Shown piece after piece: positions 1 through 15,087 of a DNA stretch of 15,087 nucleotides (positions are counted from its first letter, which is position 1; every line of letters starts with the position of its first letter). The position numbers and the translations under genes are program-made. This stretch comes from a candidate division WOR-3 bacterium (GTDB taxonomy: Bacteria; Hydrothermota; Hydrothermia; JBDRYB01), in the NCBI GenBank assembly GCA_049969615.1, contig JBMFOM010000042.1, positions 1 to 15,087 of the forward strand, written 5' to 3'. The notes under the pieces are model-generated. The model was given only the letters and a program-made list of their open reading frames with translations, searched no databases and had not been told where the DNA came from.

Positions 1-95
1 GCTCACCCGGTTCTCCGACCATATATTTCTATGTGCTTTCTTAGGGGAAGAAATTATAAAGGCCGGGTAAAGTGATATACAGGGGTCTCAAATAA

Positions 96-124
96 ATGAT
101 CCTGCGCAGGAGGTGGGTTATAAT
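96..124 (+). promoter_or_regulatory. Sigma70-type promoter (ATGATC-17-TATAAT) with palindrome TCCTGCGCAGGA (100-111)
   Basis: TATAAT at 119-124, 17-nt spacer, and close similarity to the promoter at 3382-3416. Confidence 0.6.
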
Positions 125-133
125 TTCACTCCC

Positions 134-1552: not shown

Positions 1553-3217
1553 ATGGCTGTTCACGACTACAAACCGGTAAAGGCGCCCAGGGGCACCGCG
1601 CTGACCTGCAAATCCTGGCAGACAGAAGCGCCCATGCGCATGTTGATGAACAACCTTGATCCAGAGGTGGCCAAGGACCCAGCAAACCTAATAGTCTATG
1701 GTGGAACAGGCAAGGCCGCGAGGAGCTGGGAGGCCTATCACGCCATAGTTGAGGCCCTAATGAACTTGGAGCTGGACGAGACCCTCCTGGTTCAATCCGG
1801 AAAGCCAGTCGGTATCTTCAGGACGCACGAATGGGCGCCTCGCGTTCTCATCGCAAACTCAAACCTGGTGGGCAAGTGGGCGAACTGGGAGTATTTCAGG
1901 GAGCTGGAAGACCGGGGTCTCATCATGTATGGCCAGATGACCGCTGGCAGTTGGATATACATAGGGACGCAGGGTATCCTGCAGGGGACATACGAGACCT
2001 TTGGCGCGGCCGCGAAAAAATACTTTGGGGGGGATCTCAGGGGCAAAATAGTGGTGACGGCAGGCCTCGGGGAAATGGGTGGAGCACAACCCCTCGCGGC
2101 CACCCTTAACAACGGCGTGATCATAGCGGTTGAGGTCAACCCCTGGGCAATAGAGCGGCGGTTATCGCATGGCTATCTTGACACCGAGGCAAAGGATATT
2201 GATCAGGCCCTTGACATGGCGAGGAAGGCCGCTGACAGGGGGGAGGCAATCTCTATAGGGCTACTCGGCAACATAGCCGATGTCCTGCCGGAGATGGAGA
2301 GGAGGGGGTTTGTCCCCGATATCCTCACGGATCAGACTGCCGCGCATGATCCCCTGGTCGGATATATCCCATCCGGGTTCACAGTTGAGGAGGCCGCTGA
2401 GCTCAGAAAGAAGCCGGATGAATACCTCGCGAGGGTAAAGGATTCCGTTGCCCGGCATGTCACGGCCATGCTGGAGCTCTTGAGAAAGGGTGCCATAACA
2501 TTTGAATATGGCAACAACCTGAGGCGGCTCGCGCAGGAGGCTGGCGTCCGGGACGCGTTTGATATAAAGGGCTATGTCCCGCATTTCATAAGGGACCTAT
2601 TCGCACGGGGTTCGGGTCCATTCAGGTGGGTGGCCCTCTCCGGCGATCCGGAGGACATCTTTAAGACGGACAGGAAGGCCTTGGAACTGTTTCCCCATGA
2701 TGAACACCTCCGCCGGTGGATAGACCTGGCGCAGAAGAAGGTGAAGTGGCAGGGCTTGCCCGCGAGGATATGCTGGCTCGGCCAGGGCGAGCGCGCTGAG
2801 TTCGGTCTCGCGATAAACGAGATGGTGAGGCGGGGCGAGCTCAAGGCGCCCATCGTCGTAGGCAGGGATCACCACGACACAGGCTCGGTCGCGTCGCCTT
2901 TCAGGGAGACCGAGGCAATGGCCGACGGCTCAGACGCGATAGCGGACTGGCCGATATTGAACGCGATGCTCAACGTCGCGTCGGGCGCATCTTGGGTTTC
3001 GTTCCACCACGGAGGAGGCGTTGGCATAGGCTACTCATTGCACGCTGGCATGGTCGTCGTCGCGGACGGCACGAAGGAAATGGATGTGAGGCTGGAAAGG
3101 GTTCTGACGAACGATCCGGGCATAGGGGTCATCAGGCACGCTGACGCGGGATACGAGATAGCAAAGGAGACAGCGAAAAAACACGGCCTGAAGAGGCCGA
3201 TGAGTAATATTAAGTAG
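1553..3217 (+). CDS. hutU: Urocanate hydratase
   Basis: Hallmark motifs [59 protein letters not shown] and [15 protein letters not shown] at 1540-1545 supports ATG1553. Confidence 0.98.
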
Positions 3218-3228
3218 GCTGATCCCTT

Positions 3229-3267
3229 ATAATTCAAGGCTTCCAGCCTGCCGCAAAATCTGGGTTA
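3229..3267 (-). repeat. Dispersed repeat fragment E (5' part of the family)
   Basis: Reverse complement matches 6942-6980 at 31/39 without gaps (hand alignment). Confidence 0.7.
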
Positions 3268-3387
3268 GAATGTCCGTGTCCTTTGTTATAACTTGAGAAT
3301 CTCAATTTTTGCTCCGGGACCGATAAACCCTTGGCCCAACTTGGCTAGGGCCAAGAAGGGTCAAGGGGGTGAAGGATCACCAAATAC

Positions 3388-3416
3388 TTGATCCTGCACA
3401 GGAAGTATGCTATAAT
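3388..3416 (+). promoter_or_regulatory. Sigma70-type promoter of fprA (TTGATC-17-TATAAT, extended -10 TGc)
   Basis: TTGATC at 3388-3393, TATAAT at 3411-3416 and an AGGAG RBS before ATG3448. Palindrome TCCTG-CA-CAGGA at 3392-3403. Confidence 0.8.
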
Positions 3417-3447
3417 ATATCTCTTTAATAGGTGACAGGAGCCTATC

Positions 3448-4635
3448 ATGCCAAGGGAGATAACGAACGGAATTTTCTGGGTCGGTGCGAAAGATTTTTC
3501 CCTGCGTGACTTTCACAGCTACAAGACCACGAAGGGAACCACATATAACGCGTATCTTATAAAGGCAAATAAGTCCGCGCTTGTTGACACGGTCAAGGAA
3601 CCCCATTTTGACCAGATGGTCAGACGAATTGAAGCTCTTCTGCCCCTTAAAGACCTTGACTATCTGGTTGTTAACCACTGCGAGCTTGACCACATGGGAT
3701 CAGTGGAGCGTCTTTTGGCTCTGGCCCCAAAGGCAAAGGTGATCACCAGTGCGAAGGGCGCTGAGGGGCTTTTGCTTCACTTCCCCGCCCTGTCTGACCG
3801 AGATATAACCGTTGTCAAAGCTGGTGATACCCTTGACCTGGGTGGAATAACCCTTTCCTTCTACCCTATTCCCATGGTCCACTGGCCCGATTCCATGGCC
3901 ACCTATGCGGCTGAGCTCGGTGTCCTTATGCCAAACGACGCGTTTGGACAGCACTACTCAACCGAGGCTCTCTTTGATGATGAGTCCCCTACCGAGCTCG
4001 TTTTACGAGAGCTTCAGAAATACTACGCGAGCATACTTGATCTCCTTAACCCGGGACCCGTTCAGAAGGCCGTTGAGGCCGTGAAGTCTCTATCTCCCAG
4101 GATAATAGCCCCCTCACATGGTGTGATCTGGCGCAGGGATGTCCAGAAGGTTATAGAACTCTATGAGACCTGGGCTTCCGGCTCGATTGAATCAAGGGCA
4201 ACACTGATCTATGACACCATGTATGGTGCGACCGAGGAGATGGCCAAGGCAATAGAGGAGGGTTTTGAGGCAGAGGGTGTTCCCCTTTCGGTCTATAAAG
4301 CTTCCGTATCTGATTTCCAGGAGGTTCTCACTGATGCCATGCTATCCCACGGGATAATTGTTGGTGGCCCCACCATGAACAACCACCTGTATCCTCCAGT
4401 TTCCTTCTTGCTTGAATATCTGGCAATGGCTTCCAAACGGGATAGGGCGGGTTTCGCTTTCTCGGCCTATGGTTGGGGTGGAGGGGCTGAGAAAGACATT
4501 CTCGCCTATTTTGAGAGGGCGGGGATAAGGCCCTTTGGCGAGGCCTGGAGGGTTCGTTTCAGACCCACGCGAGAGGACCTCACCCTGGGTTTTGAAAGGG
4601 CGAGGGATTTCGCCAGGCTCATAAAAGGCGCGTGA
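3448..4635 (+). CDS. fprA: Class A flavodiiron protein (metallo-beta-lactamase + flavodoxin domains; O2/NO reductase family)
   Basis: GTTYNAYLI, NHCELDH (HxExDH), MVHWPDSM, NDAFGQH, IAPSHG, YDTMYGATEEMA and AYGWGGG motifs. Confidence 0.95.
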   Translation: MPREITNGIFWVGAKDFSLRDFHSYKTTKGTTYNAYLIKANKSALVDTVKEPHFDQMVRRIEALLPLKDLDYLVVNHCELDHMGSVERLLALAPKAKVITSAKGAEGLLLHFPALSDRDITVVKAGDTLDLGGITLSFYPIPMVHWPDSMATYAAELGVLMPNDAFGQHYSTEALFDDESPTELVLRELQKYYASILDLLNPGPVQKAVEAVKSLSPRIIAPSHGVIWRRDVQKVIELYETWASGSIESRATLIYDTMYGATEEMAKAIEEGFEAEGVPLSVYKASVSDFQEVLTDAMLSHGIIVGGPTMNNHLYPPVSFLLEYLAMASKRDRAGFAFSAYGWGGGAEKDILAYFERAGIRPFGEAWRVRFRPTREDLTLGFERARDFARLIKGA

Positions 4636-4652
4636 TTCCGATTCTTCCCGGT

Positions 4653-4743
4653 CCCCTCTTAGAACCCTGTTCACTTGGACAAAGTGTTCCTCCCCCAAAC
4701 CAACAAGTTATTGCTACTTTATTAGAGGTCTCTCTGGGTTATA
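4653..4743 (-). repeat. Dispersed repeat fragment D
   Basis: Reverse complement of 4653-4732 matches 6987-7066 at 65/80 without gaps. It also matches 12910-12959 (TGGTTTGGGGGAG..TTTGTCCAAG.GAACAGG.TTCTAA.AGGGG). Confidence 0.9.
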
Positions 4744-4847: not shown

Positions 4848-6029
4848 TCAGAACAGACTGAGAGCCACTTCCTTCAACGCCCTTTGGCCCCTCACCGTTA
4901 TAAACTGGCACGCTCGTTTCATTATCACGCCCAGGCCCCTGAGATCGGCCGGGCTTATCCCATACCTTGCCCTGTGCTGTAGTATCTTTTTTGCTGTTTT
5001 CGGGCCTATGCCGGGAACCATGATCAGCTCCTGATAATCCGCTTTTGCTAGGTCTATTGGAAAGCGCTCCGGATGCAATTTGGCCCAGATCATCTTCGGA
5101 TCGGCTCCTGTAGGAACCCTCTCGTTTTCGTCCATCGGAATGTCGTCTGCCGAGAACCCGTAATCCCTTAGAAGAAAATCTGCCTGATACAGCCTGGCAG
5201 TTCTCTTGGGGTTTTCCGGCGCCATGTCCTCAAGAGGGGTCCCGCTTACAGGTCTAAACGGGCTGTAATAGACCCTTTTCAGGCCAAAAACCCTGTAGAG
5301 CTTTTCTGTTGTCACGAGTATCTCTCTGTCCGTTTCGCCCGCCGCGCCAACTACCATCTGGGTAGTCTGGCCTGCCTTGGATTCCGTTCTCTCTATGATT
5401 TTTTTCATCTCCCGGATTGCCTGACCGAGCTGTTCCCTGAAGGATTTGTCCGGGCTGAGCCTTGAGAGTCTCTCCGCGTTCGGCGCCTCAAGGTTAACAG
5501 AAACCCTATCCGCGAGCCTGCAGGCGGCCTCCACCTGCGCCTCATCAGCGCCTGGCATGATTTTTAGGTGCACATATCCCCTGAAGCCGTATTTATGCCG
5601 GAGCAGTTCGCCGGTCGCGAGTATCTCGTCCATTGAACGAACTGGTCCCCCCCTTACCCCTGATGTCAGAAATATCCCCTCAACCATGCCCTTGGAGTGG
5701 AGTTCCATAAAGGCGCGTGCCATCTCATCCGACGTTATCCTGGTTCGGCGCACATCCCTGTCCCGTCTCAATGCACAGTAATAGCAGTTGTTCTCGCACG
5801 CGCTGGTCATCGCGACCTTGAGTATGGGGCACGCGCCGCGGGGGGTCTGGGCCATGTGGATAAACTGCCTGAGTGAGAAGCTTTTCCCTGAACACTTATC
5901 ATCGTGGGCCGCGTCCACTAGTGCACCCAGCCGCTCAAAAAGGCTCATGATCTCAGTATAGAGCGCGCGGCCATGCTCGGTCAAGCACACTCCCTCGGGT
6001 ATGTCAGGTTTCCCCAGATAAACAGACAT
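4848..6029 (-). CDS. Radical SAM protein with C-terminal HhH (putative DNA modification/repair radical SAM, TIGR03916-like)
   Basis: CENNCYYC; GIFLTSG, FRGYVHLKIMPGA, LADRVSVNLEAP, RLYQADFLLRDYGF; HhH motif VPGIGPKTAKKI. Start uncertain: ATG6029 chosen because ATG6137 overlaps the divergent sigma gene. Confidence 0.9.
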   Translation of the reverse strand: MSVYLGKPDIPEGVCLTEHGRALYTEIMSLFERLGALVDAAHDDKCSGKSFSLRQFIHMAQTPRGACPILKVAMTSACENNCYYCALRRDRDVRRTRITSDEMARAFMELHSKGMVEGIFLTSGVRGGPVRSMDEILATGELLRHKYGFRGYVHLKIMPGADEAQVEAACRLADRVSVNLEAPNAERLSRLSPDKSFREQLGQAIREMKKIIERTESKAGQTTQMVVGAAGETDREILVTTEKLYRVFGLKRVYYSPFRPVSGTPLEDMAPENPKRTARLYQADFLLRDYGFSADDIPMDENERVPTGADPKMIWAKLHPERFPIDLAKADYQELIMVPGIGPKTAKKILQHRARYGISPADLRGLGVIMKRACQFITVRGQRALKEVALSLF

Positions 6030-6050
6030 GATCCTGCGCTTGAAATGGGT

Positions 6051-6082
6051 TGTAACGAAACCTCCCTTTCCTGCGTCATAAT
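6051..6082 (+). promoter_or_regulatory. Putative ECF autoregulatory promoter TGTAAC-N17-CGTC(ATAAT)
   Basis: TGTAAC at 6051-6056 and CGTC at 6074-6077 resemble the AAC/CGT promoter class of B. subtilis SigX/SigW/SigM. The site lies directly upstream of the ECF gene. Confidence 0.6.
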
Positions 6083-6088
6083 ATACAG

Positions 6089-6622
6089 GTGGATGATGAA
6101 CGGCTGGTTGAGAGGGCAAAGAGGGGCCATGTGCCATCTTTTGAGGAGCTGGTCATGAGATACTCGCGCATGGTTTTTGCCGCGACCTATGCTGTTCTTG
6201 AGGACACCGAGGCCGCGATGGACGCCTCGCAGGAAGCTTTCCTGAAGGCATATTTGGGTATCAGGAATTTCAAGGGCCAATCCCGGTTCTCAACCTGGCT
6301 CTACTCAATAGCCAGAAACTGCGCTCTTGACATGGCCAGGCGCAGATTGAGGAGCCTTACCGATAGCCTGGAAGATGTCCCAGAGCCGTCAGAAACCCCT
6401 GACAGGAGAGGAATGATTCTGGAAGAAGCCATGAAAACCCTTGATGAGCGTGAGCGAGAGGTGCTCAGCCTTTATTACAAAGGAGGGTTTTCCTCGGTGG
6501 AGATAGGCGAGATGCTTGGTTTAACCGAGGGCAATGTTCGGGTTGTAATGTTCAGAGCCAGAAAGAAACTGCGCGAGGCGCTGAGAGGCAAAGAGGATGA
6601 ACTGCTCGGAAGCGAAAGATAG
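6089..6622 (+). CDS. ECF RNA polymerase sigma factor (SigW/RpoE-like)
   Basis: Region 2 (DASQEAFLKAY...FKGQSRFSTWLYSIARN) and region 4 (EIGEMLGLTEGNVRVVMFRARKKL). Confidence 0.95.
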   Translation: MDDERLVERAKRGHVPSFEELVMRYSRMVFAATYAVLEDTEAAMDASQEAFLKAYLGIRNFKGQSRFSTWLYSIARNCALDMARRRLRSLTDSLEDVPEPSETPDRRGMILEEAMKTLDEREREVLSLYYKGGFSSVEIGEMLGLTEGNVRVVMFRARKKLREALRGKEDELLGSER

Positions 6623-6944
6623 GATCCCGCAGTATCTCGCGGGCTTGCTTGACGACCCCGGTGAGCTCCTGGAGCACATGGAGTCCTGCCCTGTCTGCCG
6701 CATGGAGCTGGAGATATACCGGAGGTTGGATGCCTTGCTCTCGTTTCCGCAGATGCCTCCGGACCTGCCAGGCCAGATCATTGAACGAATCAGGGTTTTC
6801 GGGCCAAGCCTTGCTGTTGTGGGTTGGGATGCTATTACCTGGATAGGTGCTGGCCTTGGTGCTTCTCTCGCTATATGGCTCGTGATGTTGACAAACCTTA
6901 ACTCCATAAGGGACATTATCAGGTTCATTCTGGCCGCTTTATAA
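6597..6944 (+). CDS. Zinc-binding (ZAS/zf-HC2) membrane anti-sigma factor
   Basis: MNC...HMESCPVC (HxxxCxxC) and a C-terminal hydrophobic helix. Overlaps the end of the sigma gene. Confidence 0.9.
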   Translation: MNCSEAKDRIPQYLAGLLDDPGELLEHMESCPVCRMELEIYRRLDALLSFPQMPPDLPGQIIERIRVFGPSLAVVGWDAITWIGAGLGASLAIWLVMLTNLNSIRDIIRFILAAL

Positions 6945-7174
6945 CCCGGATTGAGCGGTAAGTTGTGAGCCTTGAATTATCAACGGGAGACCTTCGATAA
7001 AGTAGCAATAACTCACTGGTTTGAATTAGGGGCACTTTGTCCAAAAGAACAAGGTTCTAAGAGGGGCCACCTGAAAAATCCCGACACGAGGGCATTTCAT
7101 CAGGATTTTCTTCCAGCTATGGTGAGGCTCCCAGATGGGGACAAAGGGCAAACCGGAATTCTTCAGGGGTTTCA
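6942..7174 (+). repeat. Dispersed repeat, longest copy A (~230 bp)
   Basis: Successive segments match 3229-3267(-), 4653-4732(-), 12909-13066(+) and 8591-8667(+). Internal inverted repeat at 7070-7083 / 7154-7167. Confidence 0.9.
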
Positions 7175-7321
7175 TAGGGTCTTCACCGAGGCCTTGCTCT
7201 GCCTTGACCGATTGTGAGGAGAACACGCTAAGTTGTTGTGCCCCAAGAACTTACAGGCTATCCTAAATCAGACCTTGCCTCTGGGAAGTGGGAATATGTG
7301 AGAGCTCAGGGAACCATTTGA

Positions 7322-8262: not shown

Positions 8263-8590
8263 GATGAGGGACCAAAATTTACGAGCGGAAAAAAGTCCAC
8301 AAGAGCAAAACCGTGAACCCAAAAGCCTTCCAGAGGAATGGGCTGAGGCCGCTGGTGAAAGGGTATCGTTTTTCAGTGAATTTGAATCCAGGCTTGATAG
8401 CATAAGAAAGAGGAACCCGGCCCGGCACCAGGAGGTTGGGGGGATGAACACTGTCCTCCTAGGGATGAAGGCAATGGGCGAACCATAAGGAGCAAGGGAC
8501 CACTTCTACATGAGATTCACCCTCGGTATAAACGCGTGGCTGGCGATCTTTATGGGGAACATACACGAGGCTGAGCGATTCTTTAGGCAA
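8263..8590 (+). pseudogene. Possible degraded gene (two in-frame ORFs separated by TAA 8486-8488, running into repeat B)
   Basis: ORFs 8234-8488 and 8510-8734 share a reading frame. The segment AWLAIFMGNIHEAERFF is loosely TPR-like. No family recognised. Confidence 0.25.
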
Positions 8591-8667
8591 GAGGGTATTT
8601 CCTCGGGGTTTTCTTGTAGTTATGATGAGGCACCAAAGAGACAAACCGGGATTTTTCAGGGGCTTCA
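8591..8667 (+). repeat. Dispersed repeat fragment B (3' part, ~10-nt internal deletion)
   Basis: GAGGG.ATT.CCTC...TATGATGAGGC...GACAAACCGGGATTT..CAGGGG.TTCA is shared with copies A and C. Confidence 0.85.
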
Positions 8668-8737
8668 CCCAAACTCAGTCCTACGCGTAATACAACCCAC
8701 TTTTATTCAGAGGATCATGCATTTGTATATTTGAAGA

Positions 8738-11643: not shown

Positions 11644-11982
11644 TTACCTCCCGCATGTGCATGGGCCAGAAGCAAAGGGCCTCGCCTTTCCGTTCAGGAA
11701 GCTCCAGACAGCGGCCTCGGGATTCTTGTCTTCAATGATGAAGACCCCCAGGCCCTCGGCCCATATATCCATGAGAAAGTCCCTGTTCCCGTCGCGGGAC
11801 AGGAATACCTCACAGGAATCCCTTATGGCCTTCATCTTCTCTTCTCTATCTGGCGGAAGGTCAATCACGGACTGGCCGTTCCGGTTTCCCTTATCGTCCA
11901 CCGAATAAACGATGATCTTGGGCGCGTGGAGGGGAAAGTAAGCCACATCCGCGCCGGATTTGCTAGGTATGGCTATCCTCAT
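11644..11982 (-). CDS. NifB/NifX-like (FeMo-cofactor-binding fold) protein, divergent
   Basis: MRIAIPS start, size, and EAAVWSFLNGK end with a CTC tail. The usual HFG motif is replaced. Translationally coupled to the CMD gene (ATGA). Confidence 0.6.
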   Translation of the reverse strand: MRIAIPSKSGADVAYFPLHAPKIIVYSVDDKGNRNGQSVIDLPPDREEKMKAIRDSCEVFLSRDGNRDFLMDIWAEGLGVFIIEDKNPEAAVWSFLNGKARPFASGPCTCGR

Positions 11983-12275
11983 TCTCCGAGGACCTCCGCT
12001 ATTATTTCCCTTGACCAGACATCCGCGGGCCCACCGTTCATCAGGAGCGTCACTGCGAGTGTCTCGGCTATCTCAGCCTTGGTTGCGCCGAGCTTCATAG
12101 CCCTCTTCAGGTGAACCTTGAGACATGGCTCGCACCTGAGAGCTATGGATAGCGCTACCATCACCAGTTCCTTCATTTTGGCGCTTATGGCGCCATCCGA
12201 GGAAGCCTTCTCCGCAAGGGAGAAGTAGTCATTCCAGAGTTCAGGCGTCTCTTTTTCAAGCAGTGATGGTTTCAT
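11979..12275 (-). CDS. Carboxymuconolactone decarboxylase/AhpD-family protein (CxxC)
   Basis: DGAISAKMKELVMVALSIALRCEPCLKVHLKRAMKLGATKAEIAE; AGGAGG RBS. Confidence 0.92.
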   Translation of the reverse strand: MKPSLLEKETPELWNDYFSLAEKASSDGAISAKMKELVMVALSIALRCEPCLKVHLKRAMKLGATKAEIAETLAVTLLMNGGPADVWSREIIAEVLGE

Positions 12276-12821: not shown

Positions 12822-12908
12822 ATTCCCTTTCCGCAGGTGGGGCAGGACCCGCCCAGAAACTGGTCAAGCTTGCCAGCAAGAAAGCTGTAGAGCGCGGTCT
12901 CGGGCCTT

Positions 12909-13066
12909 CTGGTTTGGGGGAGAAGCATTTTGTCCAAGAGAACAGGATTCTAATAGGGGTCCCCCGAAAAATCCCGCCACGAGGGCATTCCCTCATGGTT
13001 CTCATCCGGCTATGATGAGGCTCACGGATGGGGACAAAGGACAAACCGGGATTTCCGGGGGTTTCA
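12909..13066 (+). repeat. Dispersed repeat copy C
   Basis: 12925-13054 matches 7032-7161 at 108/130 without gaps (hand count). Internal inverted repeat at 12961-12976 / 13047-13061. Confidence 0.93.
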
Positions 13067-14931: not shown

Positions 14932-14954
14932 AAGGGTTTTCGCCGAACAAGTTC

Positions 14955-15059
14955 GGCGTTCTGGTGAGCTCCTGAGTCTCCCCAGGATAAATCCTGGGCA
15001 TCCAGGCTTTGGCGTTCTGGTGAGCTCCTGAGTCTCCCCAGGATAAATCCTGGGGCATC
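14955..15059. repeat. Two-copy tandem repeat (period 56) carrying a REP-like hairpin
   Basis: 44 identical nt at 14955-14998 and 15011-15054, each containing CCCAGGAT-AA-ATCCTGGG. Preceded by hairpin CGCCGAAC-AA-GTTCGGCG (14941-14958). Confidence 0.95.
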
Positions 15060-15087
15060 TTTTTCGGGGAGTTGTGAACGGTGGTTT

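Follow-up and report, generated by a model that had tools for sequence, protein, structure and literature searches.

The dispersed intergenic repeat described here is very probably a MITE, a small mobile DNA element without genes, which is now in decay after its copies had risen to a couple of hundred in the genome of a single uncultured hot-spring bacterium. The element family is an ordinary kind of genome parasite; what is new is its exact ends, its 5-bp duplication, an empty site, its long and short forms, a census, a negative search for a helper and a linked gene loss. An earlier note on the window (the whole stretch of 15,087 nucleotides that was analysed) had proposed an old, abundant, non-autonomous mobile element, and that proposal holds up well: the source genome has 223 matches, and the element shows terminal inverted repeats (TIRs), 5-bp target-site duplications (TSDs), an empty site and a mean identity of 78% among its copies.

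The window has the contig label C42 in G000, the assembly of the source genome (2.06 Mb in 203 contigs, 98% complete, GC 53.8%), which has two sequenced congeners, G001 and G002. In public runs the window sequence is found in hot-spring metagenomes only, namely in three DNA runs of one study, one of which contains 37% of the sampled words; no RNA run is listed among them. Contigs from these three runs cover the window sparsely, and their sole joints are cross-mappings among repeat copies. The gene context of the fragments is as first described, with an anti-sigma TAA, an fprA stop and a hutU stop nearby: the zf-HC2 anti-sigma ORF, which accompanies an ECF sigma factor, occupies 6597-6944 with its TAA at 6942-6944, the ORF of an FprA-like flavodiiron protein stops at 4635, and the urocanase ORF stops at 3217. 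The window was also said to be free of transposases, and no transposase domain is found in the 18 window ORFs scanned.

Similarities to the copy behind the anti-sigma gene, hereafter copy A, were collected with a repeat finder run on the window and a profile search of G000. Three of the previously noticed fragments reappear with nearly the same limits: 4653-4732 on the minus strand matches 6987-7066 (81% over 80 nt), the plus-strand fragment at 12925-13054 becomes 12909-13053 and matches 7016-7160 (81% over 145 nt), and the plus-strand fragment at 8591-8667, described as carrying a deletion, is matched at 8588-8631 to 7085-7128 (80% over 44 nt) and extended by the profile to 8587-8668, with about 10 nt missing. 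The 223 profile matches genome-wide place these similarities far above chance. For the minus-strand fragment at 3229-3267 the similarity to copy A is confirmed, but the family is another one, termed modL. The same distinction applies to copy A itself, which had been taken as one unit of 6942-7174: the repeat is real but not a single element, being modL fused to a core at 6987-7173, so that the left limit had been placed about 45 nt too wide.

The true boundaries are set by the genome-wide copies. A search of G000 with 6930-7230 gave 248 first-look candidates and 213 blastn pieces, most of which begin at query position 58 and stop at 244-245. When 67 full-length copies are aligned together with 40-nt flanks, conservation starts and stops sharply at GAGACC and GGTTTC, and the core ends are therefore set at these motifs. 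The core element runs from GAGACCYCTGATAAAG to TTTCAGGGGTTTC, which in copy A is window 6987-7173. The features of the window are collected in Table 1.

Table 1. Repeat-derived features of the window and the end sequences of the element
Feature	Position	Strand	Basis or detail
Element end sequences			5' GAGACCYCTGA...; 3' ...TCAGGGGTTTC
Copy A, full-length core, 187 bp	6987..7173	+	profile match 6986-7175, model 3-192, 196.9 bits
Copy A termini	6987..7173		GAGACCTTCGATAAAG (start) to CTTCAGGGGTTTC (end)
5'-truncated copy	12906..13065 (profile to 13067)	+	model 30-192, 166.1 bits
5' module fragment	4640..4732 (profile to 4733)	-	model 3-97, 79.7 bits
3' part, ~10-nt deletion	8587..8666 (profile to 8668)	+	model 101-192, 56.0 bits
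modL, separate ~45-bp repeat	6939..6983		blastn in G000: 20 matches, 19 cover at least 70% of query
modL copy	3229..3270	-	inverted repeat I3, 79% over 42 nt against 6939-6980; no core profile match here
modR, separate ~135-bp repeat	7174..7310	+	abuts 3' end of copy A; blastn: 21 matches in G000
Remnant of ~128-aa conserved gene	12824..12931	-	located by tblastn with the G001 protein as query

The element has common sharp termini in all 57 listed full-length copies, with GAGACC in 40 and GTTTC in 49. The long form measures 187 bp and is bounded by an imperfect 13-bp TIR (GAGACCYCTGATA versus GAAACCCCTGAAA). The 3' terminal 16-20 nt, CGGGATTTTTCAGGGGTTTC, are matched perfectly, in inverted form, by an internal stretch, CCCCTGAAAAATCCCG, at model positions ~84-99. 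A motif of about 16 nt is thereby present three times, as two direct copies, one at the 5' end (GAGACCYCTGATAAAG) and one within the element (CCCCTGAAAAATCCCG), and as an inverted copy at the 3' end (CGGGATTTTTCAGGGGTTTC). Conservation is highest at the termini and in the internal repeat, and the three motifs most likely act as transposase-binding sites.

Partial matches suggest that the long form is itself modular. Seventeen of them begin at model 75-95 and reach the 3' end, several starting with GAAACCCCTGAAAAATCCCG, a sequence missing from the long form at the corresponding place; this short form is about 110 bp long and has near-perfect 20-bp terminal repeats. A further 25 partial matches are 5' fragments, many of which end at model 60-87, indicating that the 5' module occurs alone. 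The fragment at 4640..4732 is one of these 25, and the module is found alone elsewhere in G000 too; a few of the 5'-fragment matches are internal deletions between the inverted repeats. The window copy at 8587..8666 retains its 3' terminus, located at 8666. About six short-form copies have no TSD as judged by eye rather than by formal count. From this anatomy, the short form is probably the older unit, and the 187-bp long form would then be the short form joined to a 5' module of 83 bp, the terminus of which is weaker.

The case for transposition is made by the sequences that flank the element. Target-site duplications and empty sites were sought, and both were found. Perfect 5-bp direct repeats abut the tips in 10 of the 57 full-length copies, where 0.4 are expected from shuffled pairing of the flanks, and four more copies match at four of the five pentamer positions (shuffled, 1.7). 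With up to 2 nt of slack per boundary, 22 of 57 copies have a perfect repeat; shuffling gives 2.6 on average and never more than 7. The duplicated pentamers are varied in sequence and somewhat A/T-rich. The remaining 35 full-length copies, copy A included, have no recognisable TSD even with slack; at copy A the flanking pentamers, AACGG and ATAGG, match at three of five positions, so any TSD there is degraded.

The clearest insertion is a minus-strand copy of 187 bp at C16:15472-15659 (L152:10676-10863), which has CATCC on both sides, with TTCATAACATCC to the left and CATCCTCAAAG to the right. The orthologous site in G001 reads TTCATGTCATCCTAAAAA, with a single CATCC and no element, and is an exact empty site; at the same place G002 has only a 40-nt spacer, again without the element. 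A second copy on this contig, C16:9545-9736, is absent from both congeners as well; its boundary is exact on the left, while the repeat on the right is degraded, and both copies are missing in G001 and G002 between the same genes. One G001 copy has a flanking repeat of its own, AAACA(A). At the copies in the window itself there are no clean empty sites, the intergenic DNA of the congeners being too diverged or not syntenic, and G000 has no clean empty site for the G001 copies L035 and L036. The insertion at C16:15472-15659 lies about 7 nt 5' of the ATG of a gene, between that gene and its former upstream region, and may have rewired the expression of this gene.

The element is widely dispersed and confined to close relatives. 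The profile built from full-length copies gives 223 matches spread over many contigs of the 2.06-Mb genome. The model is covered to 90% or more by 83 of them, to 50% or more by 137, and to less than 50% by the other 86. Copies thus lie far beyond the window, and the expectation that the repeat would be very numerous genome-wide, instead of a local duplication, is borne out. The core family totals 26,815 bp, or 1.30% of G000. By a crude ORF caller, 84% of the element bases fall outside ORFs, when 86% of the genome as a whole is coding. Where the neighbouring genes are in tandem, 14 copies are oriented with the genes and 18 against, which is no bias. Pairwise identity among full-length copies averages 78% (range 57-93%, maximum 92.7%), values indicating that the copies are old and none is recent.

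BLAST against 31 genomes, G000 and 30 relatives, returns matches in G000 and G001 only. The G001 copies form a subfamily of their own, and one of them used as query finds 10 matches in G001, which is 86% complete, and none in G002. When all 64 genomes of the class are scanned for the terminal 20-mer, allowing at most 2 mismatches, it occurs 130 times in G000, three times in G001 and not at all in G002. It also occurs once each in five other genomes of the class, where there is neither further similarity nor an inverted partner. The element is present in two of these 64 genomes and, as far as sequence comparison goes, the family is confined to one genus. In public genome contigs, a two-part pattern search gave one match, in the Syntrophorhabdaceae MAG L037 (JAOAHW010000172.1, 1437-1527), which has the inverted pair CCTGAAAAATCC / GGATTTTTCAGGGG in common with the element. 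It fails the element profile at E 0.01 and was not accepted as a member; the match is probably due to chance or to a very distant relative. The terminal 18-mer picks out 73 stretches in public metagenome contigs, none of them real, and there are no matches to the element in public viral contigs or, by blastn, in a plasmid collection. No paper was found on MITEs and Hydrothermae, and the element is not described among the matches listed for bacterial MITEs with a TIR and a 5-bp TSD.

Copy A stands between two other repeat families. The modL repeat is apart from the core at most of its places in G000, and the modL-core junction is seen again on C43. The modR repeat is found in at least seven places in G002, without the core element, and in one place in G001. 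Since modL, core and modR lie side by side, the 414-bp spacer that separates the anti-sigma gene from its next neighbour is a mosaic of three families. The core-modR junction on C42 recurs on C67 and C14; either such composites were duplicated whole or insertions favour this site. On C10, C8, C9 and C15 the core is joined to another module, and several copies that share a junction are without TSDs. The family may have spread partly through duplication or recombination of composites, not transposition. Intergenic regions of this genome can consist almost wholly of repeat modules.

Other repeats are present in the same genome. A young system with 93-100% identity occupies window 14932-15087, C39:1-500 and C73:1-500, and the tandem 47-mers that end the window (14952-14998 and 15008-15054) are part of it. 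It has REP-like hairpins, many of its copies are at contig ends, and at two contig starts it adjoins fragments of a Y1 (IS200/RAYT-type) transposase; it may represent a REP/RAYT or IS200-type system and is a likely cause of the assembly breaks. Several short contigs (C184, C188, C190, C196 and C147:1-546) consist of a tandem array that is 83-88% similar to itself at offsets of ~114 nt. A promoter-like cassette, the palindrome TCCTGCGCAGGA followed by TATAAT, is found at window 89-131, 3381-3423 and 6021-6063, and a cassette of this kind lies within 25 nt of a MITE end on C72, C144, C52, C16 (at 19437), C27 and C181.

A transposase flanked by the same ends was sought, and none is found in G000, G001, G002 or the public collections scanned. 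G000 has two DDE transposase genes (DDE_Tnp_1) only, each with ends unlike those of the element. The IS1182-like gene at C82:4359-5858 (DUF772 and DDE_Tnp_1_6) is 150 bp downstream of a full element copy and has its own, different inverted repeat; the other is an IS4-like gene at C70:31-1458. An end-like motif, CAAAGTTGAG..., is seen near both of these genes and again beside a MITE fragment on C6. Neither rve, Tn3-type nor TnpB domains have a match in G000. Two rve-type genes are present in G001, and a single one in G002 together with several IS5-like pieces. At nine transposase loci there is no 16-mer within 3 mismatches of either terminus besides the element copy itself, and none of the nine has ends that would identify the element with a known IS.

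An autonomous copy was also looked for directly. Split 5' and 3' profile matches form five pairs, whose gaps hold ordinary genes. G000 has 414 terminus-like 15-mers with at most 2 substitutions, 116 of them outside profile matches, and tighter end pairs bracket 19 ORFs, of which 13 are housekeeping by Pfam and none is transposase-like; six have no Pfam or NCBIfam match, the largest (481 aa) having a terminal aromatic residue like that of an outer-membrane barrel. Self-megablast of G000 reveals no repeat of IS length besides the tandem-array contigs. With no parent IS found, the link to a family name is missing. For an old MITE family it would not be surprising if the helper were absent or unassembled, and in an assembly of 203 contigs an autonomous copy could lie unassembled. 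That this is an orphan family, moved by an unrecognised or since-lost transposase lineage or cross-mobilised by the IS1182-like or IS4-like enzymes without similarity of ends, is unlikely. The multi-site ends and 5-bp duplication loosely recall transposons of the Tn7 or Mu type (rve), a likeness that, if true, would be unusual for a bacterial MITE.

The repeat might instead be kept for its fold, as a structured non-coding RNA family or an RNA-level cis element such as a terminator, stabiliser or sRNA, and the sequence does fold strongly. The consensus folds at -70.4 kcal/mol in the forward direction and -61.9 in reverse, the copies average -61.5 and -52.4, forward folding is the stronger in 60 of 68 copies, and several window fragments sit just 3' of gene ends. 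This excess in forward folding arises because the consensus stems contain G.U pairs, and it is not required of a purely DNA-level element. Conservation of the fold is nevertheless not apparent. Applied to 31 copies drawn from two genomes, RNAalifold reaches only -11.5 kcal/mol (covariation term -0.96), the main helix being the sequence-conserved internal inverted repeat, and the consensus fold of 68 copies is close to nil (-1.2 and 0.0). Single changes at the Watson-Crick pairs of the consensus are symmetric (G.U 239, A.C 247), 35 of 790 are compensated, and divergence in paired columns (11.8%) is similar to that in unpaired columns (14.0%), all of which argues for neutral decay without strand asymmetry. 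The copies show no preferred orientation relative to neighbouring genes, none of 4227 Rfam families reaches its gathering score, and the TSDs and empty site imply that copies arise by transposition. The structured RNA family that the earlier note had offered as an alternative is accordingly very improbable. A protein-coding origin, as a decayed gene family or a short ORF, deserves almost no credence: one forward frame of the consensus is open, and still open in 24 of 68 copies, and an 81-aa ORF (6972-7217) spans copy A, but substitutions over the 68 copies show no preference for any codon position (503/552/491, p = 0.10), the length of 68 of 75 deletions is not divisible by three, the ORF has no Pfam match even at E up to 1, and the copies lie between genes in both orientations.

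In a further reading the element would be of the REPIN/REP or IS200/IS605 (PATE) type, which moves in single-stranded form and depends on a Y1 (HUH) transposase, for instance a RAYT. HUH-type elements are not known to have TSDs or TIRs and insert beside a fixed target of 4-5 nt; PATEs have this conserved target at the left end, depend on a Y1 TnpA and often have TnpB, and REPINs consist of a doublet of short REP palindromes, also without TSD, with a RAYT gene flanked by REPs. The present element is, like REPINs with RAYT, short, hairpin-rich, intergenic and lineage-specific, and G000 does contain Y1 transposase fragments (C73:33-182 and C39:149-274). It differs in having TIRs and 5-bp TSDs of varied sequence, in lacking both a doublet of one short palindrome and a conserved tetramer in the left flank, and in standing apart from the Y1 fragments, which belong to the different and much younger repeat system at 93-100% identity; C73 has no match to the element profile, and TnpB is not found in G000. 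A REPIN-like nature, as once suggested, conflicts with the TIR-plus-TSD anatomy, and mobilisation by an HUH enzyme is highly unlikely. Somewhat less remote, and still quite improbable, is a transposon-derived repeat that is now used by the host, at some sites at least, as a carrier of promoters or operators or as an array of protein-binding sites. The motif repeated three times per element, the better conservation of the termini and internal repeat, the promoter-like cassette within 25 nt of some copies and the insertion about 7 nt from an ATG, between a gene and its upstream region, would all suit this use. Yet there is no sign of overall purifying selection, divergence from the consensus being ~12-14% everywhere, truncations and internal deletions are frequent, copies are absent at orthologous congener sites with the same genes, and better-kept ends are expected for any transposon family that derives from active masters.

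A decaying MITE remains the best explanation. The TIRs, the 5-bp TSDs and the empty site together indicate that the element behaves as a non-autonomous DNA transposon. The transposase cuts with a stagger of 5 bp, leaving each insertion between two copies of a 5-bp target. The family expanded to a couple of hundred copies, mostly between genes, most likely after the species split from its two sequenced congeners; the transposase source would then have been lost, and the copies would since have decayed neutrally, some becoming internally deleted or truncated and some joining other small repeats in mosaics. The order of these events, expansion after the split and then loss of activity, is deduced from the empty sites and the divergence.

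The features expected of a MITE are present: small size (187 or ~110 bp), no coding signal, TIRs, TSDs, dispersed intergenic copies and absence at orthologous sites. The element fits the published descriptions of prokaryotic MITEs in size, TIR length, length and fading of the TSD, intergenic habit and stable hairpins (PMC10969869, section 2.1; PMC11602168, introduction), and the type II (TIR-only) MITEs of the former review are among the closest known systems. MITEs are reported in 56.5% of 183,232 prokaryotic genomes (PMC11602168); another family is thus unsurprising. With MITEs in general the element has in common a length below 500 bp, a lack of coding capacity, TIRs of 13-20 bp, short direct repeats at the flanks that weaken with age, many copies between genes, stable predicted hairpins and restriction to a genus. 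It differs in that a parent IS or helper transposase with matching termini has not been found for it, and in its asymmetric ends, with a weak 5' terminus and an internal direct copy of the motif.

Comparison with individual families leads to similar conclusions. Among the examples of prokaryotic MITEs, the duplicated target is of the TA type for Correia/NEMIS and RUP and 9 bp long for MITEAba12, whereas the TSD of the present element is 5 bp without a fixed sequence. TIMEs, which derive from Tn3, are likewise non-autonomous, with 5-bp TSDs and inverted-repeat ends. Tn3-family ends are ~38 bp long and begin with a run of G; set against these general Tn3 features, the ends of the element are 13-20 bp and begin with GAGACC or GAAACC, and the Tn3-type transposase PF01526 is absent from all three congeneric genomes. 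The pneumococcal BOX elements and enterobacterial BIMEs are modular or mosaic small repeats, and their combinable modules have a counterpart here in the 5' module, the short form and the recurring junctions with modR and others. There is no sequence relation to either, and the core unit of the present family has, by contrast, a TSD and an empty site.

One copy in the window is associated with the loss of a gene. The copy at 12906-13065 is absent in G001 and G002, which have ~330 bp of conserved sequence in its place (alignment A3) and there carry a conserved, intact gene of 128-129 aa. Of this gene the window retains no more than the C-terminal 36 codons (72% identity over residues 92-127), having lost the 91 codons of the N-terminal part, and the remnant directly adjoins the 5'-truncated element copy. 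As the remnant abuts a truncated copy and the gene is intact in both congeners, the 12906-13065 copy is tied to the deletion that destroyed the gene. The ~128-aa gene belongs to no Pfam family, has a C-terminal CPxCG motif and lies downstream of an ArsR-type regulator; an intact paralogue, 47% identical, is found at window 11647-11985, 1 kb from the remnant.

The consequences for the organism and for its annotation are several. The MITE family accounts for the fragmentation of the G000 assembly and for its look-alike intergenic regions, and ORFs of 60-80 aa that run through copies should not be called as genes. At least one loss of a gene in the window is flagged by the family, which can also serve as a lineage marker to tell the source species apart from its congeners. 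In this compact 2-Mb genome, about 10% of the non-coding DNA (~280 kb) belongs to this one MITE family, a high load for a streamlined hot-spring organism.
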